Shown here one piece after another: positions 5,106-48,180 of a stretch of DNA of 64,000 bases (its first letter is position 1; each line of letters opens with the position of its first letter). Below the pieces are notes generated by a model. That model did not search any database and had not been told where the DNA came from. It saw only the letters and a list, made by a program, of their open reading frames with translations. The stretch is from contig OZ287070.1 of NCBI GenBank assembly GCA_965645245.1, positions 1,302,001-1,366,000 on the forward strand. The letters run 5' to 3'. The position numbers and the translations under genes are program-made. The stretch is from Massalongia carnosa. Its lineage: Eukaryota.

Positions 5106-5782
5106 ACTTTAAAAAGGGTGAGTCGTATGACGAAAGAACTGCTTTGGGAGGCACAACATGCCTGGATGGATGGACAACAGTTCTCTGTACGGAGGCAAAG
5201 GTGCAGTTATCCACAGTATCACATCGTGGTATCACGAAGTAATTACGGTTGTGCACTCTGTACAGAGTAGTTACTCCGTAGGGTGGAATAGTAGGTACTG
5301 ATACACTGCACTTATACTGTGGCGGTCATCTATCGCACTAACTACTTGGGTCCTAGCCATGCAGACAAACCTAAGCCGCAACATGTGACATTTGCTATTT
5401 GCAACTCCTTTGTAAACCACATTTTTCTCTCCATCAACATAGCAACACAACTGAATCTTTTTGAGCCCACCGGCAAGACGCGAATACTCCAACAAGGTAA
5501 AGACGGCTAAATCTAAGTTCTCGGTGCTTGGATCTGGAGGTGAGAGAACAGTAAGAGGTCGCCTTCGCAGGCTGGCCGTGGCAGCCCTGCGACCACGCAT
5601 GAGGTTTCTGTATCGCCTTTATTAGGGATCGCTTTTATCTAAAGTTTGGGAAGACAGCGAAAGTCTTTGCGCGAAAGAAGTCGCGAATATTTGGCGCAGA
5701 GTTTCTCGTGCACTGTTGACAATTTTGAAAGTGTTCATAACACACCCACTAAGTCTCAAGCTTTGTTCGGTCCATCGTCGCT
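5106..5782. promoter_or_regulatory. Putative bidirectional promoter region between SWD1 and RPB1
   Basis: 677 bp between two divergent ATGs; no specific sites identified. Confidence 0.55.
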
Positions 5783-8700: not shown

Positions 8701-11116
8701 AAATTTTCTAAGGAAGAATAAACGAGATGATAATGAACAGCTGCAACTTCCAATCAATGTTATTCGGATCCTTGATACAGCAAAGACTACCTTTAAGATA
8801 AAGGACGGGGCTCGAAGCAACTTACACCCAGCTGACGTAATTCCCCAGGTGCGAGAACTTCTTGACCGGCTTGTAGTCATCCGAGGTGATGATGATCTTT
8901 CTCGAGAAGGACAGCACAACGCCACCATTCTATTTAAGGCCCAACTGCGATCTCGTTTGGCATTCAAACGTTTAGTCATGGAATGCTCACTGAACAAGTT
9001 AGCGTTTCAACACGTTTTAGGAGAGATTGAAAGCCGCTTTTGCCGTGCCACAGTCAATCCCGGTGAAATGGTGGGCGTACTAGCAGCCCAATCAATTGGG
9101 GAACCAGCAACTCAAATGACCTTGAATACCTTCCACTTTGCTGGTGTCTCGTCCAAAAATGTTACTCTTGGTGTGCCACGGCTAAAGGAGATCTTAAATG
9201 TTGCGAAGAATATTAAGACCCCATCCATGACTGTCTACCAGGAAGAGGGTAATACAGGCAACAAAGAGAGCGCAAAGTTGCTGCGCAGCGCCGTCGAGCA
9301 TACTACTCTGCGTTCCGTTACAGAAACCTCCGAGGTCTATTATGACCCTGATATTCAATCAACTGTCATCGCTGCAGATTTAGACATGGTAGATTCTTAC
9401 TTCATTTTACCAGAAGCCGAGGGGGATGATCAATACCGGCAATCAAGATGGCTTCTTCGTATAATCCTCGGTCGGCGAAGCTTGCTTGATAAAGGGCTGA
9501 CTGTGCAAGATGTTGCTGCAAAGATTAAGGAAAATTATACGAAAGATCTTGCAGTAATATTTAGTGACGACAACGCCGATGAATTAGTTGTTCGGATTCG
9601 CATGATTCAGGAACATAGCAAGGGAGACGAAGATGAAGATCTTGAGGAGGATTTGATGCTGAAGAGACTGGAAAATCATATTCTTGATACATTGACCCTG
9701 AGGGGCGTGCCAGGTATCGAGCGAGCCTTTTTAAATACCAAAACGAAACTTCGTCTGAAAGAGGACGGAGCTCTGGTGATGGAGAAAAAGGATCCTCTAT
9801 GCGAAGAATGGTTCTTAGATACGAGCGGATCGGCCCTGGGCCAAGTGCTAACGATTCCCGGTGTGGACACCACCCGAACCTACTCTAATTCTTTCATTGA
9901 GGTCTTTGAGGTTTTTGGAATCGAAGCGACCAGATCCGCCCTTATGCGCGAACTGACACAGGTTTTAGCTTTTGATGGGTCCTATGTTAACCATCGCCAT
10001 TTAGCGTTACTCGTTGATGTCATGACATCTCGAGGACATCTCATGGCCATTACACGTCATGGTATCAACAGAGCCGACACTGGAGCATTGATGAGATGTT
10101 CGTTCGAGGAAACCGTTGAAATTCTTCTAGAAGCTGCTGCCTGCGGTGAGCTTGACGATTGCCGAGGCGTATCAGAGAACGTCATGCTTGGACAGCTAGC
10201 ACCTTTGGGCACTGGCGAGCTCGAGGTTTTCTTGGATCAAAAGATGCTTGATACCGTGATTTCCGACAACGCCCGGCTGGGCATCATGCCGAATATAGGT
10301 ATAAAAGGGAATCACCCTGTTGATGGGGCAGCTACTCCTTATGACAGCGGAACTCCTATGCAGGATGGGGGTTATCTTGGGACGCCTGACTATGGAGCAT
10401 CATTTTCTCCCATGGTCAACTCGGGAGCTGGGACCCCTGGCGGATTCACTCAATATCAAGGGCCTGGATTCGGTGGTGGTCTAAGTCCATACACGAACCG
10501 TAGCCCGGGTGGCGGTGGTTACTCGCCAAGCAGCCCTTTCAGCACAAGCCCGACATCGCCCGGATTTTCGCCAACGTCTCCTGGGTATTCCCCTACATCA
10601 CCCGGCATGAGTATTAGTAGCCCAGGTTTTGCCGTATCGCCTCGCTTCTCACCTGCAAGCCCGGCCTTTACGCCCACATCTCCAGGATACTCTCCAACAT
10701 CTCCAGCATATGGACAGGCTGGTATATCACCGACCTCTCCTTCGTACTCGCCTACATCTCCTAACTACTCTCCCAACTCTCCAACGTCTCCAAGCTACAG
10801 CCCTTCCTCCCCAAATTATAGCCCTACATCGCCTAGCTATAGCCCGACGTCGCCAGTTTATAGCCCTACAAGCCCTCAATTTGGCGGCAGCGTGGCTGCG
10901 AAGCAGCATTCCCCAACTTCTCCGACATCTCCGGCAAGCTACAGTCCCACATCGCCAATGTACAGCCCTACAAGTCCTGTAGGCAGTTACTCCCCTACGT
11001 CTCCAAACTTCAATGGCTCGCCGACATCCCCAGGCTCTGCACCTTACTCAGCTTCCTCACCCAAATGGTCCCCAACTTCTCCCACATATTCCCCCACATC
11101 TCCACGGGGAAATTAA
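5783..11116 (+). CDS. RPB1: DNA-directed RNA polymerase II largest subunit, 2 exons (intron 6140-6202)
   Basis: [11 protein letters not shown] zinc site, catalytic [23 protein letters not shown] trigger loop, C-terminal YSPTSP heptads. Intron GTTAGT...ACTGAC...CAG joins ...[15 protein letters not shown]... in frame. Confidence 0.99.
10520..11110 (+). repeat. RPB1 CTD heptad repeat region (degenerate YSPTSPx)
   Basis: Translated repeats YSPTSPS/N/G/A/V/Q/M with spacer interruptions. Confidence 0.95.
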
Positions 11117-11708
11117 TTTTAGTCGAAGGCATGTGGATCGGAGTCTTTGGATTCCAACTCACTTGCCATTAACTCTCAAGTGCAAAAGTGTCATTTGATC
11201 CATTTGCTCTCCTCACATGCCACGGATTCGAAAGACAATGTAGTTTTATGATTTAAAAGTCGTCCTCAGACGTCACGGAGCAACCGCCACAATTTTTGAC
11301 ACGAGGGCTTGCTGGATGAGTTTGCGATTCCCGCACACGGCGTTCTGGTCTGGGGGCGGGTTTTCCGGGAGGGGGGCTTGGCTTCTTTCCCACATCCCAA
11401 AAATTTGGGATGCAGAAAGAAAGGGGGGAGAGAGAGAAGCAAGGGGAAGGGGGGAGACTTCATTCTCATCACGCACTAAGGCTGTGTGTTTCCGGATAGT
11501 GCGGGGGGGGGCCCTTATCTTTTTCGAAATTGCAGAGTAGTATTTTGAGAAAAATTTCCGTGCTTGCGGTGTGCGTGCGGTATTCATTGATCTCTGGCAT
11601 TTTTTTTTCTTCGGTTTTTTTCATGGAAGAGGACTCCCTATTTCTTCGATTCGATTGATTAGAAAATATCAAAATACAATTTACATATATGATTTGTACA
11701 CTAGTGAT

Positions 11709-11729
11709 TACGCCGCGTAACGGGTTGGG
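11709..11729. mobile_element. Orphan terminal fragment of the hAT-like MITE family
   Basis: TACGCCGCGTAACGGGTTGGG matches the MITE TIR (TACGCCGCGCAACGGGTCGGG) with two C->T changes and is followed by a TGTCA LTR-like start. Confidence 0.6.
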
Positions 11730-12671
11730 TGTCAGGGTCTCGACTTGAGGACGAGGATCCTCGCCTCGAGTAGGGACAGACGTCTAGACCCTAACAACGC
11801 GACATCGAAGTTATACGGAAAGGACTTTCTTATGAGTAGGACATCGGATATATATTGATCATTTCGGTTCTTTTGTTACAGCGGTACTCAGTACTGCTAG
11901 CCAGCGGGCGCAATACATGAGCGCCTAAGTAGGTACGGTGACGTACCGGGCGCGGGGTACCTATATGTAGTGTAATAAGCGGTAGTGTCTCCATAGGAGA
12001 ACTACTATAGTAGCCTTTTGGCTCAATAGCTTAGGTGACTTATTACCACCGCTATTACACTTGTAGATAGCCAGTTGTCAGTTTATTCCTTCTATCCTCG
12101 GCTGCCTCAGCCTTTAGGGCTCCCACCCATTGTCTGTCGCAATTACTCACATTGGGTTTTGGCTACAAAATTGCTTTTTCGCCATCAAGATTTGGTTTTA
12201 AACTCAACCCCGACATCAAAAATCATAGGGTTCGCCACAAACGAGCTGGGTTATCAGTAGAGAAACTCGACCTATTATGCGGCGTACTAGTGATACGTAG
12301 TCATCTGTCTTAATCTATTGAATATATAACTCCTACTTGTTTAATAAACATAACATCTATTTTGGAGGGGTAGAGTAGACCTCCACCAGATGGAAAGATG
12401 ACAGGCGTGATAACTGTACGCGAGGGTCAGTGCTAGCGAACACCATTGCCGGAAATCACATGATCGCTCCCTATGCCGTCAGTTATATTCCCGCTCGCCC
12501 ACTTCTTCTGTTCAGTTTGTCTCTTCACCTCTTCCTCTAGCCAGCTAGTCAGTGCGCACGTAGCAACATGACGACGACGATGACCTGTTCATTCATTTCT
12601 TTTTCATATGATGGCCCAGTGACATTACGATTGATTTATAGACGCACACAACCCAGTTTATCCTCCTTCAC

Positions 12672-12834
12672 TGTAACGGTTCGACCATGCGGGGTGCGGA
12701 CGGCAGGACCTACAGCGAATATAGCGGGAGTCCCAGTTATAGTAGAATAGAGCTTGGTCTGTAGACTAAGTATTGTACCTTTTGGTCGGGAGGACAGGTA
12801 GCGCAATAGTAGAAATCTATTTACTATCTCGCTT
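12672..12834 (+). mobile_element. TRIM-family LTR (171-bp family), 3' end truncated by the MITE
   Basis: TGTAACGGTTCGACC...CTATCTCGCTT matches 19667-19837 but lacks the last 7 bp. Confidence 0.85.
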
Positions 12835-13751
12835 TACGCCGCGCAACGGGTTTGGGTCGGGTTGGACTCCCTCGAACCCGACTTGACGGGTTCGGGTTAT
12901 TTATGCGGGGTTCCGGGTTAAACCGTTCAACCCGGTCGGTTTTTTCTGCAAATAAAATATGAAAATTCGACAAAAATATAACGTTTAAACTGATAAAATT
13001 TCTGCTTACTAATCGTCATTTCTTGGCTAATTTTTTGCCTCAGTACCTCAGACGTGCGTGGCTCTATAAGCCGGCTAAGCCCCTCCGGGTTAGCCTATTT
13101 CGCTAATTCCCTTCGGGTTAGCGTCGCTGCTGACTAACATCAGTGCGATAGCACGTCTGAGCGCAAAACTCAAACTTACGGCCAGATCCGCGTAATAAAA
13201 ATTTTAGTAGTGCAATCTTTCCTTTTATCGATTTAATACAATGATTAGGGTCGTATTAGTTTACCAGAGACTGTATTTTATACCAAAAACGCACTTATCA
13301 AGATGGATGACTCGATAATCATGTGTTATAACCACTATCAGGCTATTAAAGCGATATGAGAGTCGATTAGGTGATAAATTGCTCGCTTTCGCTCAATTTT
13401 GAGGTAGATGAACTGATTATTTTCATGTAGCGCGATTACATTGAGTTACAAAGATCATGATAATATGAATAATGACGGCCAATTAATGATATTGTATGAT
13501 TTATCTAGATTGAAGCTATCTGACGAAAGCCATGCTCTTGTCGGGGGCCCCTCCTCGCCACTTACCGACCTTCGGACAAGTCCCTTGACTCCCGCCGGTG
13601 CGCTCAAGCGGCCCCACCCATCGCCGACAGGTAGTAATGATAGCTCACCCTCTTCCTCCTCCCCTCCTCCTCCCCTCCTGCCTTACCTGAAAAAAATAGA
13701 GGCGCGAAACGCCAACTCCGGCGCATATCAGATTACGACAAGCTGGTTGAG

Positions 13752-15885
13752 ATGCTTAAATTTCTGAGCTCTCTAAATTGGTCGGTAAAAGATTTTTTAT
13801 CAACACTTTCTAAGAATCGAGCCCGTCATAGTATGCGAAAGGCGCAAGGCCAGCTCTTCGATTTTGTCTATGTCGATATTGTGCGGCAAGAAGAGTTTTC
13901 AAGGCTTATTAGGCCTGGTAGAATATCCACTATCCTTCGCGAGAGTGGATGGGTTTGGGCCGCGGATGCGCTTCGTGAAGAAATCAAAGCTTTAGCAGAT
14001 CACGCAGCCTTTGGCTCTTTCCAGCCGCCCTCTGCGACAGTCGAGTTTGGGACCTTGGAGGCTATTAAACTTGCTGTATCTGCCGCCTCGCAGTTGGCGC
14101 CACGATGGCTTGAGCTAATTGATGGTGTTTGTCGCGAGGCTCGCCCGCAGGAACCTCTCGATGTGACGTTGGATTCTCCCAGCGGCCGGCACACCATTAT
14201 ATTAGCAATGCTTTGTCACAAATTGTGACCTAATAAGGCGACTAATATTCAGTCCGTCTTAGGCCTTTATATTTATCAAGGTTGGGCGAGGCGGCGGGTT
14301 CTAGATACACTCTGTCATTTTGACCTGACGATTTCATATACTACCCTGCAGCGGGGCATGTTATCCTTGATTAAGGAGGCCGAACGAATGGTTCAGATGC
14401 TAGGACAAGGCTCAAACATGATCTTGACATACGATAACTTTGACTTCGCAGAAGGTAAACGAGGAGAGCACACGGGGGATAATAGAGACGTCAGATCAAT
14501 TACTACCGCTCTAATTTTCCAGGGGCAAGGATTCGATGCCGGCGCTTTAAGGCAGGATATGTGGCGCCCCGCCACGCATCTTTTATCAGCTGAAAGAATC
14601 GCGCGAAAGCTGGAGACTGGTAATCTCGAGATGCAGGTGAGTTCAATACAGGACGAGATGTATATACCGCGCTTAACCGCTAATGCACCGCGCACCTAGA
14701 TTCGTCTTTATCATCTAGAGTCAGCGATTCGAGCGCTTTATGGCCCAGAGATCGGCGACGTTCAACTTCCCTGGTCGACTGCAATGCCCGTGCTGAATAA
14801 GATGAAAAAATACAAGACCAATTACATTCCTATCAAACCAGTCATGAAGGATAGAGCACAACATCTAATAATATTCAAATATTGGAGGATATATTTCTGC
14901 AACAGTTCAAGTTCAAGGAGGATGACTCGACGTTTGCGAGCGTCATTCGGCTTATATATGGTGACCTCAAGACATAGTCGAGAATGCAATTTGTCAAGGA
15001 ATTACGTCGTGGGATATCGGAGCAATCTTTCGATCGGTTCGACTGGATTTTACCGGGATTAGGGTTGTGGCATCTTCGCTTTAACATGCTGCAGCTTATT
15101 CATAAAATATATTGGGGAGAGGCCCAGCCGGTTGATCCTTCGACTCATCAATATGCCGCCGATCGGTGGGGTCGCGCTCGTGTCGTGCAGCCGAACGATT
15201 TCCAGGCCTTAGAGGATCTGATCATTCAGAGCAATCAAGCTAGAATCGTTGGGACGAGGATTAGGTTTTTGCGAAAGGAGGATTTTCTCCGCAGCGAATC
15301 GAAGCAATTATTTCGTGGCTCACAGCGCAGACTTGCGGGCAGGATGGCAGTTGGATGAATATGTTGGGCAGGATATCTCGCAAACTTCAAGCGGAATTAC
15401 CCTCAACGTCAATAGATATGCTTCCTCCAACGCTTGATCAACAATTTCAGAATCATCAGAACTTCTGTGATCACGTCGAATCGTATCTAACACTTCGATA
15501 CGCAATCCAATATGCGGATATTGGATTACTTCGTCACGCATTGCGCCACACAACAGTGATCTTTCAGGCAAGCGTAGCTGGCACCCCGAAATATGCTCAA
15601 GCTCTTCTATACACCCTTTATGCGATTGATTCTTCCGCAGCGACAATAAGGCTACAGGAAAGTATTTTAATGAATAGTCTTGTCAATTTACGCGGTGACG
15701 AAGAGTCGAGTTTTGAGACTGATCGGCTTTTAGAGATACTAAACAATAACCTCAAGACGTTCCAACACGAGCGATCTTATTTTTCAAAGTATAGTGATAC
15801 CTTGCTCGAGAACTGGGCACTCAACGGTCCATATCTTATGAAGCTCAAAGAAATCGTTGAGTTTTACTTTGGAAGAGTCAATACT
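13752..15885 (+). pseudogene. Academ-type (DUF6589-like) DDE transposase, frameshifted and 3'-interrupted
   Basis: Motifs LTYDNFDF, IYGDLKT, PGLGLWHLRFN, AIQYADIG, KYAQ, SLVN...ETDRLLEILN across several frames; intron 14637-14699 (GTGAGT...GCTAAT...TAG). Start position uncertain. Confidence 0.7.
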
Positions 15886-16465
15886 TCAAAACCGGAGCCC
15901 GAAGAGGGAGAATATCCGGAAGTTTCACAATATCAAGTCTCTATTCAAGCACAGCCAGCAGGTGGAATTGCTTACCCCATTATAGAAGGTGGAGTAGTAA
16001 TAGCTACCAAATCGGCTGAGAAATACGGCGATTTATCGGCTGAGCAAAAGGAGGACTATAAAATGGAGATATCAGCCTATAAGATGAAGGAAAAACAGGT
16101 GGAGAAGGTCGCCCAAGGACTCAGAATAGTGGAAAATGCACTAAAGAGCTCCGCACGAGCATACATCCCCCCCAATAAGATAGCTTCATCGGTTAGGGAA
16201 AAAGTGAAAATTCTGGTGCAAGATATAAGCGGTCAGATGACCAAGTCATAGAGCAATTGCATGAGCAATTTCTAGCCCTAAAAACCCCGCCCATTAAAGG
16301 TAAAATAGAGGTATAGATAGCTGATTGGGAGAATATTAAGGGACAAATTTTTGAGCTCAATATAACGGGCCTATTTTGCTCCGAGACCATATTCATCAAT
16401 GAATTTCTCCAATCAGGGAAGAAATAGGCGCCCAATTTCTGTGAAAACTGGGTCATGCAGCATAG

Positions 16466-16955
16466 TGTTATGGAATTACCTCACACCCTCCCACGTTTCC
16501 TGATCGGGTTAGTCTTTAACAGGCTCTCTTGCCGTGAAACCTGCCCTGCATGTTGAATAGAACCGTGGCCCGTTATTCCAAACTATCCTGAAACCTCGCC
16601 CCATGTGTTCAGACGTTCTTCCGCTGCCTTCAGTGCACTCCCAAACTCCTATATCCCGAGTCCAATCTCAACGTCTCCATTATCCAAGCCTACGACTGGG
16701 ATTGCCCAGCAGAGAGAGATTGCTTCGGCATGGAGAAAGGCGGAACAGGTCAAAGCGATCATGGTTAGGAAATTATAACAGGAACAGAGATGAGGGCAAG
16801 TCAAGAATAGGGGAGTTGGAAGCCATGGCTATAAAACCTATGTGGTTTCTCAGGTGTTTGGAGCTCTTCGTCGGACGTCTTGTATACTATCCCTAGACCT
16901 AGCTTTCTAAATAGTAACTCTTGTATATCTCACTATCTGGACCTTGTCCGTGATA
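16466..16955 (+). mobile_element. Solo LTR related to the chromovirus LTRs at 35979/44764, inserted in Copia gag
   Basis: TGTTA...TGATA ends, TSD CATAG on both sides; shared blocks such as CCTGATCGGGTTAGT and GCCATGGCTATAAA. Confidence 0.85.
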
Positions 16956-18189
16956 CATAGGGCTGCTAAGACGACGGTTGAATTTTACGAGACAACCAGG
17001 GAATATCGTTTAGCCGTGGAATTATTCCTGAATGAGGCAAAAGCAGCGTCTAGAAATCAAGTTAATGCAGCTTCGCTGCAGGGGCAAATGCAAGACGAAA
17101 ATAAAGGTCCGGGGTCTAGCCAATCAAGTCAATAGAATGGCCAATCAAAAGAGGCCAGATTTAATGATAGAAAGTGCGTATGTGGGAAAATACACCTGTT
17201 TAGGCTATGCCATATATCGTCAAATCAGCTCGCCCCCCTGCATAGAAGGAAGATAAAACCGTACGCAATGAAATGCGTCAGAAAATTCAGTCAAACATTC
17301 GGTTTTTCATGGGCATTAAGAAGGTCACCGAAACTACTATACTAGATGGAATAACTGAGGAGTTAGTCAAAAAGAGCTCCCAAAAAGCAGAGAATGATTA
17401 AAATAATCAGGGCAATCATATTGAATTGCCTGGTCAATCCTTCTCGGTTGCGAACGTTACATCTAGGGCAAATAACCCCTTGCATAAAAGCGTCATATTT
17501 GACTCCGGATGCGATAACTCTCTGACCTATGATAAATCACGGTTTATAGGAGAAATAACCCCAACTTCGTCAGACATGTGGGTGGACACCCCCGAAGGGG
17601 AGATGAAAATCCATGGTCATGGCACAATAAGGGTAAATGGCCTATTAAATGGCCAGAAAAGAGAGCTATTATTTGAAGGAACAGCTTATATTCCTGATTC
17701 ATCAGTGACGTTTGTTTCGGCCAATAAGTTGAAAAACGAGGATTTTTCTGGGATATGTTTACTGATACCCTTATAGTTAAGGAGACAGGGCAACAAATAT
17801 GTGAAATAAAGGAGCACTATGGGCTATCAATCGTAGAATATAACCTGAATCCATAGATATAGGGTTTGCTAACTCGGTGCAGCCACGTGATACGTCAAAA
17901 GCAACTCCATAGAAGTGGCATCTTCGGCTCGGTCATTGCCCGCCAGAAGTGATTGACCAGTTAAAGAAGATCGATGAGGTAACAGTTTCAAAAGGCGTAG
18001 GGGGTAAAAACGTACCTAGGACCATACAATGCGAAACGTGTGCAGTCTCCAAAATGCATAGAGTCATCAATAAAGCTCCGTCAGGGCGTGCCATCAAGCC
18101 ATATCTAGTACTTCATTTTGACCTAACCATCAATGATAAGGGGTTCGATGGAACGAGCTGTATAGCTCATTTTACGGACGAATTTACCT

Positions 18190-18440
18190 TGTCACGATTC
18201 TACACGGCACGACCTCGGCACTCGGCACCGCCTAGGGCAATCGTAGATGGAATACGCAGGCGCTTTCGATTTCGTTCCCGCAGCTGCTAGAAGGTTCCAT
18301 GACGACTATACCACATGGGTACTAGCGCAGTAGAGGATATATAGGGGCAGGTTCTGGTTGTCGATTGTCTTTTTCCTTCTTCATCTTGATTGTATTCGTT
18401 TCTAGCATCCCTATGACTTGTCTCTAGGTAGATCATAATA
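18190..18440. mobile_element. Solo LTR (251 bp) in Copia integrase
   Basis: TGTCACG...CATAATA ends, TSD TACCT; removing it rejoins the integrase frame. Confidence 0.8.
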
Positions 18441-19666
18441 TACCTCATATGTATGGGTTTATCTATTGAATGATCATAAGGAAAAGACTATATTGCCAAT
18501 CTTCAAAATCTTGATCAATCAATTCGATAGGGCTGGCATTTCTATTAATTCAATAGTAACCACGATTCGCACGGGGCAAGAAAAATCAATAGGAAAAGCC
18601 CTAGAAGTATGGATCAGTCAGCAAGATATAGAATGGTCATGGTCAGCAAAGAATACCCCTGAGCAAAATGGCGTTTCGGAGCGTTTCGGAGCCCTATTAA
18701 CTGAAAAAGCTCGATGCATCAGGGAATATGCAAAAATACCAGAAGATCTGTATCCGGAGTGCTATTTAGCTGCAGCCTATCTGATGAATCGAACCCCCAA
18801 TAAAGTTCTGGAATGGGACTCCCCATTGGTCAAATTGCAGAAACTGACCAATCCGGGTCAATCAGTCAGATACGAGCTGGCTCATCTAAAAGTGTTTGGT
18901 TGCAAGGCCTATCAATTGCTAAAAGGGGCCGATGCTTCTCCCAAAAGCAATAAGTTGAAACCTAGGGCATTTGTTAGCTATTTGGTTGGCTATGATTCAA
19001 CTAATATCTTCAGGATATGGAATCCAGAAAAGGGAGATGTCAGCGGTTTTACAGACGTCATATTCAACGAAGATGAGCTTTATAGCGCCTATACGTCGAA
19101 TAAGGAGCTATTGCTAAAGGAGACTAGAAAAGCGAGCTTTATAGAGTTTCATGTAGTTGAACCACGCCCCGCATTTCAGGAGATAGATAGTAAGGAAGAA
19201 GAATGGCTAGACTTATCAGTCAATAAATATATAGAGCAATTGACCATAGAAGATAACTCATCTAGTCAGGACGAAATACAGGAAAAAATAACTCCCTCAT
19301 CAACGCCCATGCAACTGGAAACGCCGATAGAAACACCTGAACCAGATATCAGCCCTAATGTCTCCATAGATAAAAGAAGGGCCAAAAAGGTGAGGGTATC
19401 AACAATTGACCCTCCACAACTCCCGCAAACGGGCCGAACGCCCCTCAATGTGACGGAAATAGAGCAATCATCAGGGAAAAAAAGCGATGGGATAAATGAG
19501 ACAAACGTTATAGAAGGAACACGTACTAGGAAACCAAACCCTAGATACGCTGCAAATAGAGATTGGTCAGCAGAAGAAATGTCGAAATTCATTCAATTTC
19601 ATACAGCGTTTATGGCGGGGACGGCGAGAATGACTAATCAGCTCCGAACTGATGATTTGCCCGACC

Positions 19667-19837
19667 TGTAACGGTTCGACCAAGCGTGGTGCGGACGGCA
19701 GGACCTACTGCGAACATAGCAGGAGTCCCAGTTATAGTAGAATAGAGCTTGGTCTGCGGACTAAGTATTGTGCCTTTTGGTCGGGAAGGACAGGTGGCGC
19801 AATGGTAGAAATCTATTCACTATCTCGCTTCGTCACA
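19667..19837 (+). mobile_element. Solo LTR of the 171-bp TRIM family
   Basis: TGTAAC...GTCACA, TSD CGACC. Confidence 0.9.
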
Positions 19838-21587
19838 CGACCAACCATCTCATTGGCGAGCTCTGCTAAGGCATCCCTATGCAGATGAGTTCATGAAAGC
19901 AGCTACCGTTGAATGGAAGACACTTTTCCACAAAGAAACATGGGAAATAGTTGATCAAGCTGAGGCTATAAAGCCAATATTGCCCCTCAAATAGTTTTTC
20001 ACCTATAAGACTGATTCGGACGGCTATTTGGCAAAGTTCAAAGCACGTCTGGTGGTTAGAGGTAACCAACAGCAAGATAATGCTCAAGATGTTTATGCAG
20101 CTATACTAGCCTTCAAGGTATTTAAGGCATTAATGGCAATAGTTGCTGCATTCGGGCTGAAAACGAGGCAGTTGGACGCTATTAACGCCTTTCTAAACGC
20201 TCACAATGACGAGCCTATTTACTGCTTTTTGCATGATAGTTTTAAGCTTAGAAAGAAGGTGCTAGAAGTGAAAAAAGCGCTATATGGCCAAAGAAAATCA
20301 CCCCTTCTATGGCTACGAATGCTAATAGGCAAATGCATAGAACTATGGTTAAAACAGGTGCCAGGCGAACCATGCCTATTATATACGGAGGGAATCATAC
20401 TATTCTTCTATGTAGACGACATAGTAATGGCGTATAGGTCCGAAAAAGAAGCCAAAGTCGAGGAATATATGCAACGTTTTATGAAGATGATCGAAATACG
20501 GGACATGGGTCCATTAACCTATTTTCTAGGCGTACGGGTCATTTAGAACATAGAAGAAAAGACGATCCACTTGATTCAGGACTCCTATATAAACAAATTA
20601 GCCAAGGAATATGATATAGATAAAAAGTCGGAGGCTAAAACACCTCTAACGCCTATATTCAATGAAGAACTGGCGCCATATGAGAGGGAGGTAGATCCGG
20701 CCAGAATGCATCTATATAGGAAGAAAGTTGGATTAATATGCTACCCAGCTATTATGACTCGGCCAGATATAGCAAAATCAGCTTCAAAATTAGCTTAATA
20801 TCTGACAAACCCGGGACCTAGTAATATGAGGGCTGTAGACTATTGCCTACGTTATCTATATAGGACGAAATATCTGGGAATCTAGTACTCGGCCAAAGGG
20901 GGCGGTAAAATCACTACTATGGCAAATCATAGACCGGTCCCAGCTAATAAGCAGGTTTTTGAGGCAACGGCTGATGTATCCTATGCAAATAACCCAGATA
21001 GGAAAAGCTCCGAGGGTTATATATTCAAGCTATTTGGTGGGATGACTGACTGGGCCGCTAGGAAGCAACTGACCGTGACCACGTCAACCACTGAGGCCGA
21101 GTTATTGTCTATGCTTCATGCGGGTAAAGAGCTCATATGATGGATACATCTATTTGGAAAGCTACAATTTAACCCGGATCAAGATATAGTTATCTATAAC
21201 GATAACCTATAGATAATTCGCATTTTAACTCCGAAATGTGAAAAACTGACACTAAATTGAGGCATATAGACGTCGCACAATGCTGGCTTAGGCAATCTGT
21301 GCAAAGGGGGGAATTATGTGTTGACTATGTACCGACCAATCAGATGGTCGCAGATGGTTTAACCAAGATCCTACCTCCTCAAAAGCATCAACATTTCGTC
21401 AAGCTATTAGGGCTAGTCAATGCCATAGACCCGGTCAACAATCAGAAGAAATTGGCCAATCAGAAGAAGGGAAATACTGCCACAAATTGAATCGGCCAAA
21501 ATCACTATAAATCAAGGTAAAATATGGGAATTTGTCACCTATTATAGGTTTTTTGGTCATGGCAGCTTTGGTCAAAGCTGGGGGGTG

Positions 21588-21752
21588 TGTTAGGGGATTA
21601 GGGGTCACATGACCCGCCATGGGTCACATGACCCACGAACCCCTATGAGATTTCCCTCAGTTAGCTAGCCTAGACCTCCCATATATCAATACACACCACT
21701 CCTCTTCACCCATATTCCATATTAGCCCATATAGCTTGATACATTATCAACA
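21588..21752 (+). repeat. 3' LTR of the Copia remnant
   Basis: TGTTAG...TCAACA preceded by purine tract AAAGCTGGGGGGTG; contains a duplicated GGGTCACATGACCC palindrome. Confidence 0.75.
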
Positions 21753-22465
21753 ACGAGCGCCGCATCGGAGATATTGTGATTAGGTGCAGGATTCTCGCCC
21801 GATGGCTCCGTGCTCTCGTTTTCCTTCGAGACTTTATTCTTGACCGCATTTCGCTTTTTAAAAACCGTTCTCGACATATGTCCTTGTTTAATCATCCAGT
21901 TTTTCCTCCGTTCCTCAATTTCAAAACTGGCGGAGTTGCATGTTGGGCTGGGTAATCGTTTTCGCTTTATGTCGTTGTGTTATTTCCATTCGTCGAACAT
22001 GTCTCCCTCGTCTAATCTCATCGCTTGACCCCGCTTTAAAATTTCTAAAAGCTCGGTGCCGTAGGGCTTAATACCAGCCCATGTGTTACCAATCTATAGT
22101 CGCATGGTAGGCTCGTCCAAAGTCTGATCCGCCCAAGTGGTCAAAGAATTCAGTACCTCATCGGGCATTATCAATGATGGGAAGTATCGCATATGTAAAT
22201 TTGGGAACTTGTCCTGCGCCTTGGCCTCCCTCTATTCTCGAAGTTTAAGGGTAAACCAAGGCCGCCTAGACGAGTCACGCTCGGCCGTTCTATTTAACAT
22301 CTCATTGGCGGCTGTTGATGTCTTAAAACTTAGATCGCAAATTGAACAGCAAGGTTGCGGCTTAACATAGGCCGACGTTGGATACACTTTATCATTGAAG
22401 AAATTCAAGCTAATACCTCGAACGCAACCATCTGAAGGTATATTGATTATCTCCTAAAGACCCGG

Positions 22466-22797
22466 TGTAAAGGGATAAACTGGGTGGTGGCGAACGATAG
22501 AAGGATGAAACAAACAAACAAATGACCGAATCAACCGAGCCTTAGTGCATCGATGAATGAATCGTCAAGCCTATAAATGGCCGACTAGCTGTATGAATAA
22601 AAGTGTCTATGATAGCTGTATATGTTGATAGCAGTATGATCCGAAGATGGATATCCCGAAAGATGAGAAGGAAAGTTCGAGAAAAAGACTCTTATAACCG
22701 GAACGCCAAGACGCCAGCACCCGACCACATGACCAATCACCTGACTAATCACTTGACTTGCCACCGTCCCGGTGGAGTTCAACTCCACCCTTCCACA
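22466..22797. mobile_element. Solo LTR (332 bp) with 4-bp TSD
   Basis: TGTAAAGGG...CCCTTCCACA, TSD CCGG; removal rejoins helicase ADRRRDMPPGL*EIIN. Confidence 0.8.
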
Positions 22798-22893
22798 CCG
22801 GTGGCATATCTCGTCGCCGATCAGCATCCTTTTGATTGATGCAGCGTTTACTGGCCTTGGATTCAATCTCGATTCCCGCGTCATCAGATCCGT

Positions 22894-23408
22894 TGTCAGG
22901 GCAGAGAAGGAATAAGGCCTAAGCTAACTAAGCGGGGCTTAGTTCTACGGCTAGGCTTAGTCATATGGAAAGCAGTTGGTCTGCGTTACGCGGCTGGTAT
23001 CTACTGCCGAGAGTATAGTACGAGCGATCGAGATATACGAGGATGCTCGTACGATTAGTAAGCGGATAGTACGATACAGTCAGCACAGTGTCCACGATAC
23101 AGTCAGCACAGTGTCTACGATACAGTCAGCACAGTGTCCACGATGCAGTCAGCAGAGTATTTAGCCGGCTTATCCGGTAGGAGTAATGGGCGGTCAAGAT
23201 ATTTACAGTATCAAGGGCCCAGAGGGTCAAGGGCTTCGGTCCGGGTATATAAGGAGGCTGCTCGAGGGAGGTGCAATCTTCAACGATTAGTCTTCCGCTT
23301 TACCTACATACTTCTTTTAGTATATTAGTATAGCAAATCATTAGTGACTTCACATTGTCATATATCCCTAGGCCTGGTGTCTGATAATCGCCAGGTCTGA
23401 CTCTTATA
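22894..23408 (+). mobile_element. Solo LTR (515 bp) with internal minisatellite
   Basis: TGTCAG...CTTATA, TSD TCCGT, TATATAA box. Confidence 0.75.
23071..23158. repeat. 23-bp tandem repeat ACGATACAGTCAGCACAGTGTCC, 3 full copies plus 1 partial
   Basis: Read directly; lies inside the solo LTR. Confidence 0.9.
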
Positions 23409-25909
23409 TCCGTCGTGTTCGTCTATTTTTGATCCGCTTCTTGTATCTATGCACTAAGAAGGATGCAAAAGAATAAAATGCGCCTGTCCTCGACCGCAAC
23501 GCAAAACACGACCTACACGTTGATATAGCTTCGCCATTGACGAGGGTAGCAGCCATTGCGTAACTCTCATAACGTCTGGATTATCAATACCAAGCCCGTA
23601 TGCATCCTTTGCGATCAGGATTCGAGGAAATTTACATTTATTCGAGGGCATTTCGAAGCGAGCCGCAATCCTTTCTTTGTCTTGGGTTGCGATGTCGGAA
23701 AAGAAAGGCGCGACCCAACTAGCGGCCTCAATTGAAAGGACAATTGATTTATCCATACTTTCATTAGCGTACACGCCTTTATGATAGATGAAATTGAATC
23801 CATGAAGATAATCGTTTTCGGAATATCAAAAGGACTCTCAGCACGTGTTGGTAAAAGATATTAAAGATCGATTATGCTGTTCATAGGCCTCTGTAGACTG
23901 CTTGTCTATATGAATATCTCTGGACGATCAAGCGCTGTTTGAATAACAGTACTTTCGGTTATCAAAGCCACAGTGATCTTTAACGCTCTCTAGGGTTTTT
24001 GGATCAAGCGTCGCAGACGCACCCAGAAAAGGAATACCGTCTGGTAATCGTGTACGAAGTATACCGAGACTGAAGTATTCGGGCCGGAAATCTCGCCATT
24101 CGGATACAAGATACATCTCATCAAGAGCTAAAAGATATAAATTCAAGAAGAAACTTGGATACCTCAGAACCTCCTGATTAAATAGCTTTGACGTCGCTAT
24201 CTCTGGGCTAGTAAAAACTATTCATATCAACGAGTAAGTTTTTATAACAATGCGTATAATTGTTTTCACGGATTAACTTTAAATTAGAAGAATTATTACT
24301 ATTACCGTCCAACACAAAAGGCTTGCATCCCTCGATAACGCTTAATTTCTTGTACTGTTGAGCTTCTAAGGTCTTGAGAGGCAAGATAATTAAAGCGATC
24401 TTAAGGCAAGAAAACATTAATGGCATAGCTTGAAAGATAATACTCTTTCCAAATCTAGTCTTGGCGATAAATTTCAGATCCTTTTGATCTTGTGCCAAAG
24501 TTATGATAGCGTCAACTTGCTCATTCTTTGGCGAAAAGCCGAATTTACTTAAAATCACGGTCGTCACCTGATCGAGAGTTATCGACGCCATAGGATCGTT
24601 CATTTAGATATGTTCGCGAGCGATATTCGACGATTCGCGAGTTGGATTCTTAGCCCGCAAAACGCATATCAAGCAAGTTCATCATATTCAACGCTTTCAG
24701 GCTTTCGAAAACAACGCTCGGAAGATCAGATTAATGATGAGAAGCGCCGACAATGAAAATCTGGAGCTAGTGACTCGTTGAGTCTGCTGTGGTAGTGTCG
24801 AAATTTCGAGTCAAAGTCGAGTCCTCGTCGCGAGATCGATATTGGGACTCAATTCTGCATCGATATGAAATTAAAATATTGATTAATCGATAGAATGTAT
24901 ACCAAAGCATCATTTCTATTACTACATAATTTATGAAATGTCGTTGCGCGTTGTTGATTCCGCTATCAACTTGATACTTGATGATTTTTGAGGTTAAGCC
25001 AAAAATTTGTATGAGCGCGCACCAAAATAAGCCGGATCTGACAAAAATAAAGAGTTTGCGCTCAGACGTGCCGCCAGTAGCATGCGTAGTCAGCTAAAGG
25101 GCCGCTAACCCGAAGGTGCTTAGCGAAATAGGCTAACCCGGAGGGGCTTAGCCGGCTCATAGAGCCACGCACGTCTGAGGTACTGAGACAACTAATTTTC
25201 AGAATTTTCAAATGTGTTTAAAACCTCTAAAAAACATGTTTAAAAATGACATAAAAAATCGACCGGGTCGAACGGGTCAAACGGGTTTACCTAGGAACGG
25301 TTCTGCAACCAAGCAGGCTGAGCCGTACAGGTTCCCCAAGCCGGTAGCGGGTCGGGTTCGACTAGTCACAACCCGACCTAACCCGACCCGTTGCGCGGCG
25401 TAGTTATGATCGTGTTATTATCTTTGCCCGATTCTAGTATAAACTTTATAGCCTTGCATTTGATGATGCTGAATAATCGTCCCATGTTTGCGTTTGAAAC
25501 TACGAGGTAGCAAGAATAAAGATCTAACATCTTAGCCACCCACTCGGGTCAGCCACCCAATTGGGTCACCTCACCAAAAATTTTCTGTAATGGGCTACGA
25601 GACTAGTAAGCTTATCACGAGCGACACTGATCTCGAAAGGGGAAATGCTCAGCGTGAGAGGAGGAAGATAGCTACTACGTGCTAGTCTCCGAGAGTATAC
25701 GTGATCCAAAGAACTAATGGATGTGGAAGTGCTTAGACCAAGAGATCTCGTCCGAGACCCAAACGTAGGTTGTTCATAGAATAAAGACTAATTGCTAACG
25801 AATACTACAAGATTCGTTCTGATATTTATCCTACTCACCCCAAGCCTATAGCCTTGGGAGCCTTGGAACCTTAGGAGCCTTGCAAGCCTTGGGAGCCTTG
25901 CGAGCATTA

Positions 25910-26480
25910 TGTGACGAAGCGAGATAGTGAATAGATTTCTACCATTGCGCCACCTGTCCTTCCCGACCAAAAGGCACAATACTTAGTCCGCAGACTAAGC
26001 TCTATTCTACTATAACTGGGACTCCTGCTATGTTCGCTGTAGGTCCTGCCGTCCGCACCACGCATGGTCGAACCTTTACACTACCGCCCGTCTAGCTGCG
26101 GCTAGCCCCTAGCCGCTTCCAGTTATAGTTAGCCCCGAAGAATGGGCTCTTCTTAGCGTACGGCCCTCGCCGATCCGACTTAGAGAGTTTTCATCCAACG
26201 CTTTCCCGTTTCGTCCTAGCTTCAGTCCGTCGAAGCAAGGCGAAAAAGCGAGGAACTCAGGTCAGGAATCGAACTCACGACTAGTATACCGATTGACGAC
26301 TAAGTATTCTACGACGAAGCGAGATAGTGAATAGATTTCTACCATTGCGCCACCTGTCCTTCCCGACCAAAAGGCACAATACTTAGTCCGCAGACTAAGC
26401 TCTATTCTACTATAACTGGGACACCTGCTATGTTCGCTGTAGGTCCTGCCGTCCGCACCACGCATGGTCGAACCGTTACA
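25910..26480 (-). mobile_element. Complete TRIM (two 171-bp LTRs plus 229-bp non-coding interior)
   Basis: LTRs 25910-26080 and 26310-26480 (about 4 differences); TSD CATTA/AATTA; the empty site is visible in the LTR copy near 42875; purine-rich tract next to the 3' LTR. Confidence 0.9.
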
Positions 26481-27484
26481 AATTACAGCCTTGCAATCCA
26501 CATCCGACTTTATCGCATTACATCCAACCATCCCTCAGGATCCATCCACGAACTCGGCGTTCGCTGGATTATCTAGTCAGCCTCGAGCAGCCTTCTAGAT
26601 CTTCCCTTGCAAGGTAGAACAATTCTACCCCCGGCTAGATCCCTCACTACATGCCTCAGGCTATGTAGCTTCATTTCGCCGTCACCACTACCTAGTGATG
26701 GAAGGTTACCTCCGACTGAATACCTCGCTACACTGCGGACCTGCCTCTAGACACAAGGTCTAGACAACGAAGTCATGTAGGTTCATTCAGCCGACATCAC
26801 TACCAACGTAGTAATAAAGGTTGAAGCTGAAATTTACACTGGGGAGCCTAGCTCAAGCTGCGTCCAGCGAGCCGTGCCTCCTGCTACCTCTCTTGAACCA
26901 TCAAGAGATCCAGTAGCTCCGAGTAGGCCAGTAGATCCCATATAGAGTTCCTTGGCGTCTCCACAGGAGTCCGCCTTACACTCCATGGCAATCTACCACC
27001 ACGGCCTCGACAGGTGTTTGATCTGTAAGTAGTCAAGAACGTGATAACAATAACTCCGAAGTTTCGGGGCAAGATGGCAGTGTGTTGTGGAAGGATGAAC
27101 TGGGTGGTGTGCGTGGTCCACTATTGCTAGGAGTGCAAGAGAACAAACAAACAAGAGAAGAACAGAACAATAGAATAAGGACAATAGCTAGACTGGTCTC
27201 TGTATGCCTCGTGCCTCGTGCCTCGTGCCTGTGAACTGTATGTGTTGATGCTATGTGTTGTAGCTATTGCTACGAGCATGCTTGCTCTATAAGGAAAAGA
27301 ACTATCTATAACTAAACTAAAAGAAAGACTGTCACCTGACTTCCCCGCTACCTTTACCGAGTATCAACCGAAAAGAACCAACTCCCGAACCGCTAGCAAT
27401 TTGAATTTAGAGTATCACCGCTCCACCCCCCTACATAGTTCCCCTCTCTCTTTAGGTGTCGACCCCTGACACCTATCACTGTTC

Positions 27485-28357: not shown

Positions 28358-31300
28358 TCAATTTTCCACCGTCTCCATCGCATCAGCACGTCTGCTAGGA
28401 ATCACTACTGCCATTGGCCAGCCAGGTGGAATCATGGACTGTCGGTCGTCCTCGTCCCCCCCATGGTTTATAGTCGGCCCCTGACTATTATGTTGCTCAG
28501 GTTCTTCTATCGGAGGTAAGTTAATATTTTGCCGAGCATGAAATGGTTTCAGTCGATTTCCTGCAAAGGTTCCAGCTAATAGGGTGCCGTCTAGTTCACA
28601 TAGTTTGTAAGTTCCCTTATCAACAATTGTTTGTTGAATTTTATATGGTCCCAACCACCTGAACGTTAGTTTGCCTGTGTGCTGATTGTCTAATTTAGTG
28701 TCGTGCAAAAGAATTAATTGACCCTCGGTGAGTTCAATTGATCTCAGATTGTTCAGAGTGTCAAAGGTCTCTTTGCCTTCCATTCTTTGTCTTTGCAGGA
28801 ATAAAGCTGTCTCTTCCATGTCTTCATCCCTTCGCTGTATTTGTCTCGCACGCATAGCTAGCAATTCGTCTGTTGTATGAACTTCATTCCATGGTAATAT
28901 TCTCCATGTTGGAATTTCCAGTTCAATTGGTAGAACAGCCTCATTGCCGCTATTCAGATAGAAAGGTGTGTTGCCGGTGCTAGCACGAACTGTTGTACGG
29001 TCGGCCCATAGTACTGCAGGAAGATTATCAACCCATTTGCCCATGCCTCCATTTGTCATTTTGGATAATGCTTGAACAACTGGCCGATGTCCCCGTTCTA
29101 TCATGCCATTGGCTTGCGGATGATAGGCAGAAACAACTACTCTTTTGATACCATATCGATTTGCTAATTCGATAACAGCATCTTTGTTTTCTGGTCCACC
29201 ATCAACAATCAGTTTTCCGAAGCACCCATGTCTGCATATAACATCTTCCCACAAGAATCTCGCGACATTCTGAGCGGTAGCTTTTCCTAGTGCTCTACCC
29301 TCGACCCATCCGGAAAAGTCATCTCTGGCCATAACAATATAGTGCTTGCCTCGACAAGCTGGCATGTGGACCACGTCTAAGCCAACCTTCTGCCACATGA
29401 AGGTAACCCATGTCGGATGAAGTGCTTCCTCGAGCCTAGTGGGGTCACGTTTCTGACATTCCTCGCAGGACCGAACATAGCCTTTTACATCATCGTGCAA
29501 TTGTTCCCACCAGTACCTGTCTGCTATGCGTCTGTATGTGCCCTCTCTGCCTCTATGTCCACTTTCGTCATGCAGCTGTTTCAATATTTCCAACTTCCGC
29601 TCATCGGAGTCTATCACTCTCCTGGAAGGTACGTTCTTGCTGTTTCGTCTATAAAGATGGCCATCTTGTACTCGATAGCGCAAGGCCTCGCTCTTAAACG
29701 CTCTAAACTCTTTGCGGTTTAGTCCAACCGGCTTTTGTAGTGATGTTAGAAATGCAGCGATTCTCTCGGACTTATCACTATATCCGGCCTTTAGCACTTT
29801 TTCGTCTGGCACCTCTGCGGAGTTAACGGAAATTGGACAGGCCCTTAGTGAATTCAGTTCGGCATCTATGAAGTCGTCTATGTCTTGCTCCTGCTGTTCG
29901 GCCCGAATTTCTTCCTCAGTATGAGGTCGTCTAGACAGTCCATCTGCTGCCGTATGTTTTCGGCCAGCAACATGTTTGACCTCGAAGTCAAACAGTCGTA
30001 TCCATGCTATCCATCGGACTATCAGAGCACCAGGCAAATCGGTACAAGCTCCATTCAATTGCGCCACTAGGACGTTGGCGTCTGTCTCCAACACAAAGTG
30101 AACTCCATATAGCCAGTGCCTTGTCTTTTTCAATGCCTTTAGAACGCCTCGACACTCTCGCTTGGTTGCATCATATCGCTGTTCCACCTCGCTCCATACT
30201 CCGCTTTCGTACCGAATGGGGTGACGCTTGCCATCAAAGATTTGCATCAGTACAGCGCCCCATCCTTTCAAACTCGCATCCACAGCCAATATGATAAGTC
30301 CAGCTAGCTCGCTATAGTCAATGGTCTTTAGTGCTGGCGGAGATGTCAGAGCTATCTTCAGCAAGTCCATTGCCTCGGTTTGTTCCATGCCCCATACAAA
30401 AGCAGCATCTTTCTTCAGCAGACGATATATTGGTTCAGCAACAATGGCAAAGTCCAATATCCATATGCGATAGTACACACACACACCTATAAAAGCACGA
30501 GCGGAAGAAGCGTCGGTGCATATCGGCCACTCTAGAATTTTGATAACCTTAGCGGTGTCCGGATGTCTACCATCGGAGTCGGTCACAAATCCTACTATCT
30601 TCAGACCGGCCATGCAAAATTGCGACTTTTCTCCGGAGATAGTGCATCCAGCCCTTTCTATGTCCGCGAGTACCCCATCTAGCCACATGAGATGTTCAAG
30701 CACGTACTTTCTGATGCCCGGTGCCACTTCTTCACCACCATAATCAGTCTTCGGCCCCTTCACTCCGATGTCATCAAGGAAAGGTTTAGCACGGTTCGGA
30801 ATGTGGTCCTGCAGTATCTTTGTCACTACCCGTACGAACTGTGCAACCGAATTGGTAGCTCCCATTGGTATAGATGTCATTCGCAATAGTCCTATTGGTG
30901 TCATGAAGGCGGTCATGTCTCGACTATGAACATCGAGTTCCATTTGGTCATATCCTGAAAACAAGTCGATCAAGGAAGCGATGTGGCAGCCAGCAAAGTC
31001 CTCTGAGAATTCGTCTACCGAAGGTGGCAGATTTGCGTCTCGGATGGTCACTTTGTTCATGTCTAGGGCCGCATTAATTAATCGGTACTTATTTTTCTCT
31101 TTCTTCTTCACTATGAACCATGGATTTCGATAGGGACCATGACAAGGTTCCAACGTTCCTCGCTGCAGTCGGTCCTTCAGCATCTCTATCACCATCGGTA
31201 CCAGGGCCCTTGGCAATGGGAATGATGGGGTCTGCCATGCCTCATGTGGAATAGTGTTGATTTTACATGGTGGAGACACCTCAGGTTTGACTCTGCCCAT

Positions 31301-47938: not shown

Positions 47939-48180
47939 TAGACTGCTTACAAATCAAACACCTGTCGAGGCCGTGGTAGTAGATTGCCATGGAGTAAGGC
48001 GAACTCCTATGGAGAAGCCGTGAACTCTATATAGAATCTACTGGCCTAATCAGAGGTACTCGATCTCTTGATGGATCAAGAGTTGTTGCAGGAGGCACAG
48101 CTAGCTGGACGCAGCTTGAGCTCGGCCTCCCCGGTGTAAACTTCAGCTTCAACCTTTATTGCTACGTTGGTAGTAATATC

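Follow-up and report, generated by a model that had tools for sequence, protein, structure and literature searches.

A probable dead, nested copy of a helicase-carrying Academ-type DNA transposon in a lichen-type ascomycete

The closest described relatives of the element considered here are the AcademH transposons, a lineage reportedly described by Kojima in 2020, in Mobile DNA 11:15. Transposons that pair a helicase with an Asp-Asp-Glu (DDE) transposase are rare and, to our knowledge, no role has been established for the helicase. In the part available of a later paper, the author of AcademH gives target-site duplications (TSDs) of 9-10 bp for AcademH and of 3-4 bp for AcademX (PMC10045372). 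A paper citing the lineage places AcademH in Basidiomycota, Ascomycota and Mucoromycota, in the portion to hand (PMC10799480), and, for fungi, Table 1 of Muszewska et al. 2017 enters Academ as 'low copy, in most taxa' (PMC5751038, available in part). A second fungal group, KolobokH, has a RecQ helicase encoded downstream of its transposase domain, according to the section seen of PMC9587614. The locus described here lies in a stretch of 64,000 nucleotides of Massalongia carnosa (assembly GCA_965645245.1, contig OZ287070.1, positions 1,302,001 to 1,366,000 of the forward strand; hereafter the window, whose own numbering is used throughout). Positions 13035-25191 are interpreted, at a probability of roughly 0.8, as a dead, nested copy of a helicase-carrying, Academ-type cut-and-paste DNA transposon of a lichen-type filamentous ascomycete. 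No new class is involved, as elements of the AcademH kind are already in the literature and the 8-bp TSD found here is the one deviation; nor are the Pezizomycotina the new ground that a first-pass annotation had supposed, given the reports of AcademH in Ascomycota and of Academ in most fungal taxa, as far as those sources were available.

The ends of the element were placed to the base. A repeat search of the window paired two arms of 100 nt, 13029-13128 and 25098-25197, that were 91% complementary, and blastn extended the pairing to 13029-13167 and 25055-25197 (146 columns, 84.9%). The left terminus at 13035 reads TTGCCTCAG... and the right terminus at 25191 reads, in reverse complement, TTGTCTCAG...; base by base, the left junction is ...GGCTAATTTT followed directly by TTGCCTCAGTACCTCAGACGTG, and the right junction, again in reverse complement, is ...AAAATTAG followed directly by TTGTCTCAGTACCTCAGACGTG. 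An exact 8-bp direct repeat, CTAATTTT, stands beside both termini, at 13027-13034 and 25192-25199, and the element was therefore taken to be 13035-25191, with terminal inverted repeats (TIRs) of ~135 nt at 13035-13167 (+ strand) and 25055-25191 (- strand). The target has an uninterrupted paralogue elsewhere in the window, at 49701-50107 (-), which belongs to another repeat family. By blastn, 12847-13025 corresponds to 50107-49927 at 88% and 25194-25405 to 49911-49701 at 91.5%; the paralogue is continuous across the insertion point, has a single xTAATTTT where the element has two copies of the duplication, and thus represents an empty site. In a sequencing run from another organism (X3), a 1.8-kb contig of another copy stopped exactly at the position matching 13035 and passed into unrelated flank.

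Relatives of the transposase were examined at 21 loci on metagenome contigs (37-55% identity), one of which, L001, is a complete relative element (2827-13969) whose transposase is ~45% identical to the first sequence of the query alignment. Its TIRs of 156 nt (93.6%) start TTGCCTCAGTTCTCAGACGTG, almost the same 21 letters as in the window element, and its flanks, GTTTTTTT and GTTTCTTT, form an 8-bp TSD in which 7 of 8 positions agree. L012-L015, L017 and L021 end in this terminus as well, on the side of the helicase. The empty site, the X3 contig ending at 13035 and the termini and TSD of L001 together show an insertion rather than a chance repeat, for which the target was cut in a staggered way and 8 bp of it were duplicated, and the long TIRs and TSD proposed in the first-pass annotation were thereby borne out. 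L001 was the only one of the 21 loci in which blastn-short found a TIR pair flanking the genes, with L021 containing two inverted-repeat pairs besides; local alignment of L012-L015, L017 and L021 with their own right TIRs yielded no left ends, so that no more TSDs could be read and the TSD length is that of two complete elements (n=2), the window element and L001. Each TIR also contains two 21-nt palindromes of the form GCTAA-N11-TTAGC, at 13074-13094 and 13102-13122 on the left and at 25104-25124 and 25132-25152 on the right. A pattern search found four matches in the 64-kb window, all of them within the TIRs (chance expectation 0.03), and in the 21 related loci the pattern occurred at element termini only. 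The palindromes are probable transposase-binding sites. Two irregularities were seen near the left ends. Contigs of other copies from X1 and X3 depart after 13199 with an identical loose end and the next X1 piece picks up at 13307, so that 13200-13306 marks a small insertion, deletion or replacement just inside the left TIR, either here or in the others. In L001 ~5.7 kb (2983-8679) separates the left TIR from the transposase match, against ~0.7 kb in the window, probably as a result of nested insertions.

Inward from the left TIR lies a transposase pseudogene on the + strand (13465-15889, the start at ~13465 being approximate), which consists of an N-terminal region with the sequence YDNFD, containing the first catalytic D, and of DUF6589. 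It has three in-frame stops (14226, 14697 and 14975) and at least three frame changes, and it ends after the residue matching position 370 of P0001, a 478-aa protein, 94% identical, that stands for 72 sequences clustered at 90% and located on Mb-scale contigs. Two frames of the + strand gave Pfam matches to DUF6589, at E 8e-16 and at E 3e-22. Residues 1-370 of P0001 align to 14784-15891 over three frames. The upstream single frame, 13644-14858, was translated with X at two stops (P0056) and contains LTYDNFDFAEG; a Pfam scan of it gave no match. An exhaustive search with P0056 returned 277 relatives at E <= 0.001, mostly called as separate proteins of 300-400 aa, and the long ones among them (708-1062 aa) join the N-terminal region and DUF6589 in a single chain. 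DUF6589 was present in 12 of the 24 relatives scanned and an XPG or helicase domain in none of the 24. Since the long relatives hold both regions in one chain, the transposase is taken to be one protein of ~900 aa, with DUF6589 covering its C-terminal two thirds according to Pfam. Gene calls in most genomes come in two parts, a 'hypothetical protein' of 300-400 aa from the N-terminal region, in which Pfam recognises no family, and a DUF6589 protein of 470-530 aa from the C-terminal region; such split calls are either an annotation artefact or reflect an intron or stop between the parts.

Conserved blocks in the diverged full-length relatives were YDN(F/M/I), S(I/V)TT, DES(T/S)N, GD(Q/L)KT, (F/W)H(L/I)xxN, DIG, LVNxxG and DxxLExxNxxxK, and the DNFD, GD, WH and D..LE motifs picked out earlier from the window are all present and conserved. 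An AlphaFold2 model of an intact relative, P0158, had a mean predicted local distance difference test score of 72.6 and a predicted template modelling score of 0.66. In this model D179 lies in a strand (174-185), D338 follows a strand at ~331 and E570 lies in a helix (565-583). An exhaustive structural search with the model against 48,161 chains (VIA-align) placed DDE transposases and retroviral-type integrases in all of the top 26 rows, with Z scores of 9.2 for Hermes, 7.2-7.8 for RAG1/ProtoRAG, ~6 for integrase cores and 5.5 for the P element, followed by Tn5 and IstA. The alignments cover ~171-612 of P0158 and so span D179 and E570. As modelled, DUF6589 and the region upstream of it are predicted to form a DDE core of the RNase H-like type into which a large domain is inserted.

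Assignment to Academ was made against the RNase_H_Academ profile (465 nodes, 44 sequences), which derives from the Yuan & Wessler alignment and Repbase (PMC5751038 supplement) and was, as the accessible part of that paper states, built partly from Puccinia elements. Nodes 1-9 of the profile read q f D N w D i k P, the D, the N and the second D being nearly invariant, and correspond to Y-D-N-F-D-F in the window and to YDNF(E/D/N/K), YDNM and YDNI in relatives. The second block, y v v l t g d q p l at nodes 185-194 (with L second-best at q), corresponds to L-x-L-x-x-G-D-(Q/L)-K-T in the family; one relative, P0144, has N for D here. The H block, g f f H i at nodes 220-224, is matched by G-L-(F/W)-H-(L/I), also seen as (L/W)-(F/W)-H-(L/I)-x-x-N. 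The E block, D e a l E q l i v r d l K at nodes 450-462, is matched by D-R-L-L-E-I-L-N-N-N-L-K in the window family and by D-R-L-(L/V)-E-x-x-N-x-x-(L/M/I)-K in relatives, with K one residue closer than in the profile. The spacings were broadly similar. Between the first and second D the distance was 159 aa in P0158 and ~178 in the window family, against 188 nodes; from the second D it was 29-36 aa to the H against 32 nodes, and 232-257 aa to the E against 263 nodes. The whole span from first D to E is 391 aa in P0158 against 451 nodes. As a control, confined to first block and profile length, the Kolobok profile from the same supplement is 273 nodes long, with v v s l D g s w at its start. Judged by these consensus letters, all four catalytic blocks appear to fit the Academ profile and the signature to be that of the Academ superfamily. 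In the Atlas the neighbours of a full-length relative were DUF6589 clusters, mostly from Basidiomycota and Mucoromycota, and the named relatives of the window family (Icmadophila, Teloschistes, Stereocaulon, Sclerophora, Geoglossum, Metarhizium and Ilyonectria) are all Pezizomycotina.

The second gene converges on the first, as had been proposed, and is a RecQ-family helicase pseudogene on the - strand (21738-24603) with DEAD and Helicase_C domains, a four-Cys module and a C-terminal region of ~240 aa. Eight in-frame stops, at least one frameshift (~24208-24221) and two insertions interrupt it, and the last ~45 codons are missing. Helicase_C was detected by Pfam at E 1e-9 and DEAD at E 4e-4, the latter below the Pfam cut-off; together with the motifs legible in the badly broken frames, these matches mark a superfamily-2 helicase. 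A read-through piece, P0038, was used to find relatives, one of which, P0040, is named 'superfamily II DNA helicase RecQ' by JGI. In P0040 Pfam found both DEAD and Helicase_C, and all 37 of its PDB sequence matches were to the RecQ family (E. coli RecQ, WRN, BLM, RECQ1, RECQ4 and RECQ5). By sequence, the intact protein would be a RecQ-family helicase of ~715 aa. The zinc module claimed in the first-pass annotation stands as a cysteine cluster, C-x~27-CC-x2-C after Helicase_C, kept in 16-17 of 17 helicase relatives, but has no counterpart among Pfam zinc-binding families, as neither a RecQ zinc-binding nor an RQC family was found over it.

In 16 of the 21 loci the transposase is followed immediately downstream by a convergent helicase, 15 by tblastn and L021 by a profile of helicase relatives, with tblastn identities of 32-59% across the paired loci. 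In the window element and in L001 it lies inside the TIRs. Three of the loci without a helicase (L003, L011 and L020) have less than 0.4 kb of downstream sequence, and a fourth, L008, stops short of where its near-twin L009 carries the gene, in that case 5 kb away. Protein searches revealed three further transposase/helicase pairs on equally sized contigs of 28673, 10605 and 5685 bp. Copies lacking the helicase had been named beforehand as the finding that would point to a single capture; because the convergent pairing instead appears in 16 of the 21 related loci, the helicase accompanies the transposase stably and is not a one-off capture. At 90% identity the clusters comprise 72 sequences of the transposase and 43 of the helicase, located on Mb-scale contigs; several share one full 478-aa open reading frame (ORF). 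Close copies were present in sequencing runs of at least four organisms, the best-matching run being labelled lichen metagenome.

The copy in the window is both interrupted and decayed. Two small insertions lie in the helicase, one of 336 bp at 22466-22801 that starts TG... and is flanked by CCGG, the other of 520 bp at 22894-23413 that starts TG..., is flanked by ATCCGT and holds a 23-bp tandem repeat. Both are probably solo long terminal repeats (LTRs). Both had been recognised as inserts in the first-pass annotation, and rightly so, since P0039, the helicase relative nearest to this one, runs collinearly through both sites (residues 237/238 and 269/265), contigs of other copies from X1 and X2 skip 22888-23407, and an X2 contig has 3 letters in place of 22465-22803. 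The third and largest block, 15886-21752, had also been read as a simple insert, and here the evidence points elsewhere. It is mostly a 5'-truncated Copia-type fragment on the + strand (15890-21737), with a gag-like ORF, Pol_BBD, an integrase SH3 domain and RVT_2, within which no LTR pair was found, and it contains three secondary inserts that other copies lack (16461-16955, 18185-18440 and 19662-19837). Transposase homology reaches 15889-15891 and helicase homology reaches ~21738, 15 bp inside the proposed insert. Beyond 15889 other copies of the element encode RHPAKSAA, residues 371-378 of P0001, and other copies of the window's Copia extend 5' of 15885. A search of the whole window for the transposase C-terminus with four relatives at E <= 10 gave chance-level matches only, and neither the last 108 transposase residues (against P0001) nor the last 45 helicase residues (against P0039) occur anywhere in the window. 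The Copia fragment has thus replaced the 3' ends of both genes. The central part of the element is deleted and excision of the three inserts therefore does not rebuild it: the ~5.4 kb predicted for the excised element holds as arithmetic (12157 - 5867 - 336 - 520 = 5434 bp), but the result is without ~0.5-0.7 kb of the centre, which cannot be reconstructed from this copy. An intact element would be about 6 kb, made up of the ~5.45 kb left, the lost gene ends and an intergenic gap like those of L001 and L017 (54-243 bp).

Of 10 stops compared with relatives, five replace W (TGG to TAG) and one replaces R (CGA to TGA). Where the window and other copies differ, A in the window stood opposite G 99-108 times and T opposite C 99-118 times, against 34-54 for G opposite A and 22-45 for C opposite T, so that A/T opposite G/C was ~2-4x commoner than the reverse. 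This bias fits repeat-induced point mutation (RIP)-like change of this copy. Two of the frameshifts are private 1-bp deletions, because in all four runs one more G follows 13533 and another follows 14852. The secondary insert at 19662-19837 belongs to a repeat of ~171-176 bp (TGTAAC...GTCACA) that also occurs at 12672-12834, 25910-26080 (-), 26313-26480 (-) and 48180-48351. The copy at 19662 has a duplication of 5 bp, CGACC, on its flanks and is absent from other Copia copies. In every run with depth values, the summed contig depth was far higher for the bin containing this repeat than for any other bin, and the repeat resembles either a solo LTR, very short and in high copy number, or a small element that is non-autonomous.

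A number of observations weigh against the interpretation as an Academ-type transposon with a stable helicase, or narrow what can be drawn from it. The Academ match is a comparison by eye of consensus letters in four blocks, without score, E-value or tree, and no second route from DUF6589 to Academ by way of an XPG-fused relative was found among the 24 and 19 proteins scanned. The latter 19 came from a word-indexed profile search with full-length transposases that returned no animal or XPG-fused relatives, the search being limited by shared words. The top VIA-align Z of 9.2 just modestly exceeds the stated background of 7-8, and Foldseek with the P0158 model found no match in the PDB at E <= 0.001. 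As to the pairing, no helicase was found by tblastn or profile in the 4.2 kb downstream of the transposase in L002, the helicase of L016 is one tblastn match of 32% identity that the profile missed, and L012-L015 share a flank and are probably one locus in several assemblies, so that 16 of 21 overstates the number of independent cases, which is nearer a dozen. The metagenomic relatives examined were all degraded. The mismatches between the two TIRs are without transition bias (4 of 13), and RIP is not evident there. Finally, the TSD of 8 bp, found in both complete elements (in one of them at 7/8 positions), differs from the 9-10 bp of AcademH.

The AcademH-like character suggested in the first-pass annotation is accordingly upheld by the catalytic blocks and the RecQ helicase, and fails to match in TSD length. 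Like AcademH, the window element is a fungal, TIR-bounded DDE transposon with a helicase encoded as a separate protein beside the transposase; it is unlike it in TSD length, in its hosts, which are lichen-type and other Pezizomycotina, and in the paired palindromes of its TIRs. These differences raise the question of a separate, unnamed lineage, sister to AcademH, that would combine a helicase and an Academ-like signature with its own 8-bp TSD and paired-palindrome ends. The two concordant TSDs, the purely Pezizomycotina set of named relatives and the want of any DUF6589-Academ link in the literature searched speak for such a lineage, but all four blocks and their spacing fit the Academ profile, the TSD is known from n=2, and the Atlas neighbours are mostly DUF6589 proteins of Basidiomycota and Mucoromycota, groups with reported AcademH. 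TSD length also often differs by one base within a superfamily. We regard a sister lineage as unlikely and, with n=2 for the TSD, call the element AcademH-type without assigning it to the described clade or to a place next to that clade. AcademX shares the transposase signature, and is unlike the window element in having a fused XPG nuclease (0 of 24 and 0 of 19 relatives here), where the accessory protein here is a helicase, and in its TSD, which is 8 bp here.

Other superfamilies fit less well. A KolobokH element would likewise be a fungal DDE transposon with a RecQ-type helicase, yet the window family has Y-D-N-F-D where Kolobok has D-G-x-W, its core of ~390-435 aa from first D to E contrasts with a profile of 273 nodes, and its helicase is a gene of its own on the opposite strand rather than downstream of the transposase domain. 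Kolobok has a TSD of 4 bp, TTAA, against 8 bp here, and membership is very improbable. A hAT or Mutator identity is less credible still. In its favour, hAT elements typically have TSDs of 8 bp, the TIRs are long, and Hermes was the best structural match. But RAG1, integrases and the P element scored nearly like Hermes, which argues for a match to general DDE architecture, and Pfam gave DUF6589 only and no hAT, Mutator-like or other transposase family. The C/DxxH motif, common to hAT, MuDR, P, Kolobok and Dada in the available section of PMC9587614, is also absent, there being no C or D three residues ahead of the conserved H in the window family alignment. What the element shares with Hermes and with RAG1/Transib-type proteins is an RNase H-like DDE core broken by a large, mostly helical insertion domain; unlike them it has a helicase partner, lacks C/DxxH, and has no detectable sequence relationship to either. 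Equally remote is a single capture, in which a DUF6589 transposon would once have enclosed between its TIRs a RecQ gene of the host or a piece of some unrelated element, and the helicase would have no function in the family. L002, without a helicase within 4.2 kb, and L009, with one 5 kb away, could be cited for it, but the convergent helicases beside transposases 37-55% identical have diverged in step with them (32-59%) and three more pairs share contigs.

Taking the window element as a helicase-carrying Academ-type transposon, its intact form would have TIRs of ~135 nt starting TTG(C/T)CTCAG, each with two palindromes, a gene for the ~900-aa transposase running inward from the left end, and a gene for the ~715-aa helicase running inward from the right. 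The N-terminal part of the transposase may bind the paired subterminal palindromes, and the DDE core would then cut at the TTG termini and join the ends to target. By analogy with Hermes and RAG1, to which the model shows structural likeness, a hairpin intermediate might form on the flanking DNA. The helicase would be an accessory, not required for the chemistry, that unwinds or remodels DNA at the ends during excision or integration, or that acts in repair of the donor gap. As for the history of this copy, the probable order of events would begin with insertion into another repeat just downstream of RPB1. A Copia element may then have landed between the two convergent genes, after which a deletion reaching from inside the transposase into Copia would have removed the 5' part of Copia and the 3' ends of both genes. 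Two solo-LTR-like insertions into the helicase and three more into Copia presumably followed, and RIP-like C-to-T and G-to-A mutation together with 1-bp deletions would have wrecked the reading frames.

The DDE fold and Academ signature are evidence that DUF6589 is the core of a transposase. In the literature searched for 'DUF6589', a set that left the primary AcademH paper and the bioRxiv supplements outside, no link of DUF6589 to Academ or to DDE transposases was found. PF20231, DUF6589 and Academ are absent from three supplements of PMC10799480, Academ is not mentioned in the available portion of PMC12730594, and PMC9970103 and PMC12210899, in the parts to hand, merely cite the AcademH paper. 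DUF6589 has been treated as a possible virulence or epigenetic factor, in the portion seen of bioRxiv 10.1101/2025.10.24.684071. The link helps genome annotation, as gene callers routinely split the transposase into two 'hypothetical proteins'. The locus and its relatives provide a well-delimited example, with exact ends, a TSD, an empty site, conserved terminal and subterminal sites and a stable helicase partner. More tentatively, they may belong to a distinct helicase-carrying Academ lineage of lichen-forming and other filamentous ascomycetes, with an 8-bp TSD and palindromic binding sites, that is active or was so very recently; we consider this possible but doubtful. Recent or continuing activity is suggested by the 72 and 43 cluster members, the repeated 478-aa ORF and the close copies in runs of at least four organisms. 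Were such a lineage real, the many fungal 'DUF6589 domain-containing proteins' would call for annotation as Academ transposases rather than unknowns or candidate virulence factors, and if it were also recently active, intact copies would offer a tractable system for the contribution of a RecQ helicase to DDE transposition.

The surroundings of the element are rich in other repeats. The repeat family into which it inserted is represented by 12671-13025 and 25194-27000, and the window contains two or more additional partial copies, with 47975-50107 and 42360-43198 matching at 83-99% identity. An open frame of 1639 aa at 6197-11116 (+) contains all the RNA polymerase II Rpb1 domains and the C-terminal domain repeat, and the nest of transposable elements starts ~1.5 kb downstream of this essential gene, RPB1. 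A Gypsy/Ty3-type retroelement at 28358-34989 (-) has frames of 1210 aa (reverse transcriptase, RNase H and integrase) and 1018 aa (no Pfam match) and may be intact. A second, unrelated DNA transposon is represented by a pogo/Tc1-like DDE_1 transposase fragment at 40515-41594 (-), with E 5e-14. The tract from 50000 to 64000 is AT-rich, with a GC content of 0.30-0.38 against 0.44-0.50 elsewhere, and contains elements resembling long interspersed nuclear elements with long frames of 923 aa (endonuclease and reverse transcriptase) and 1006 aa (reverse transcriptase and RNase H).

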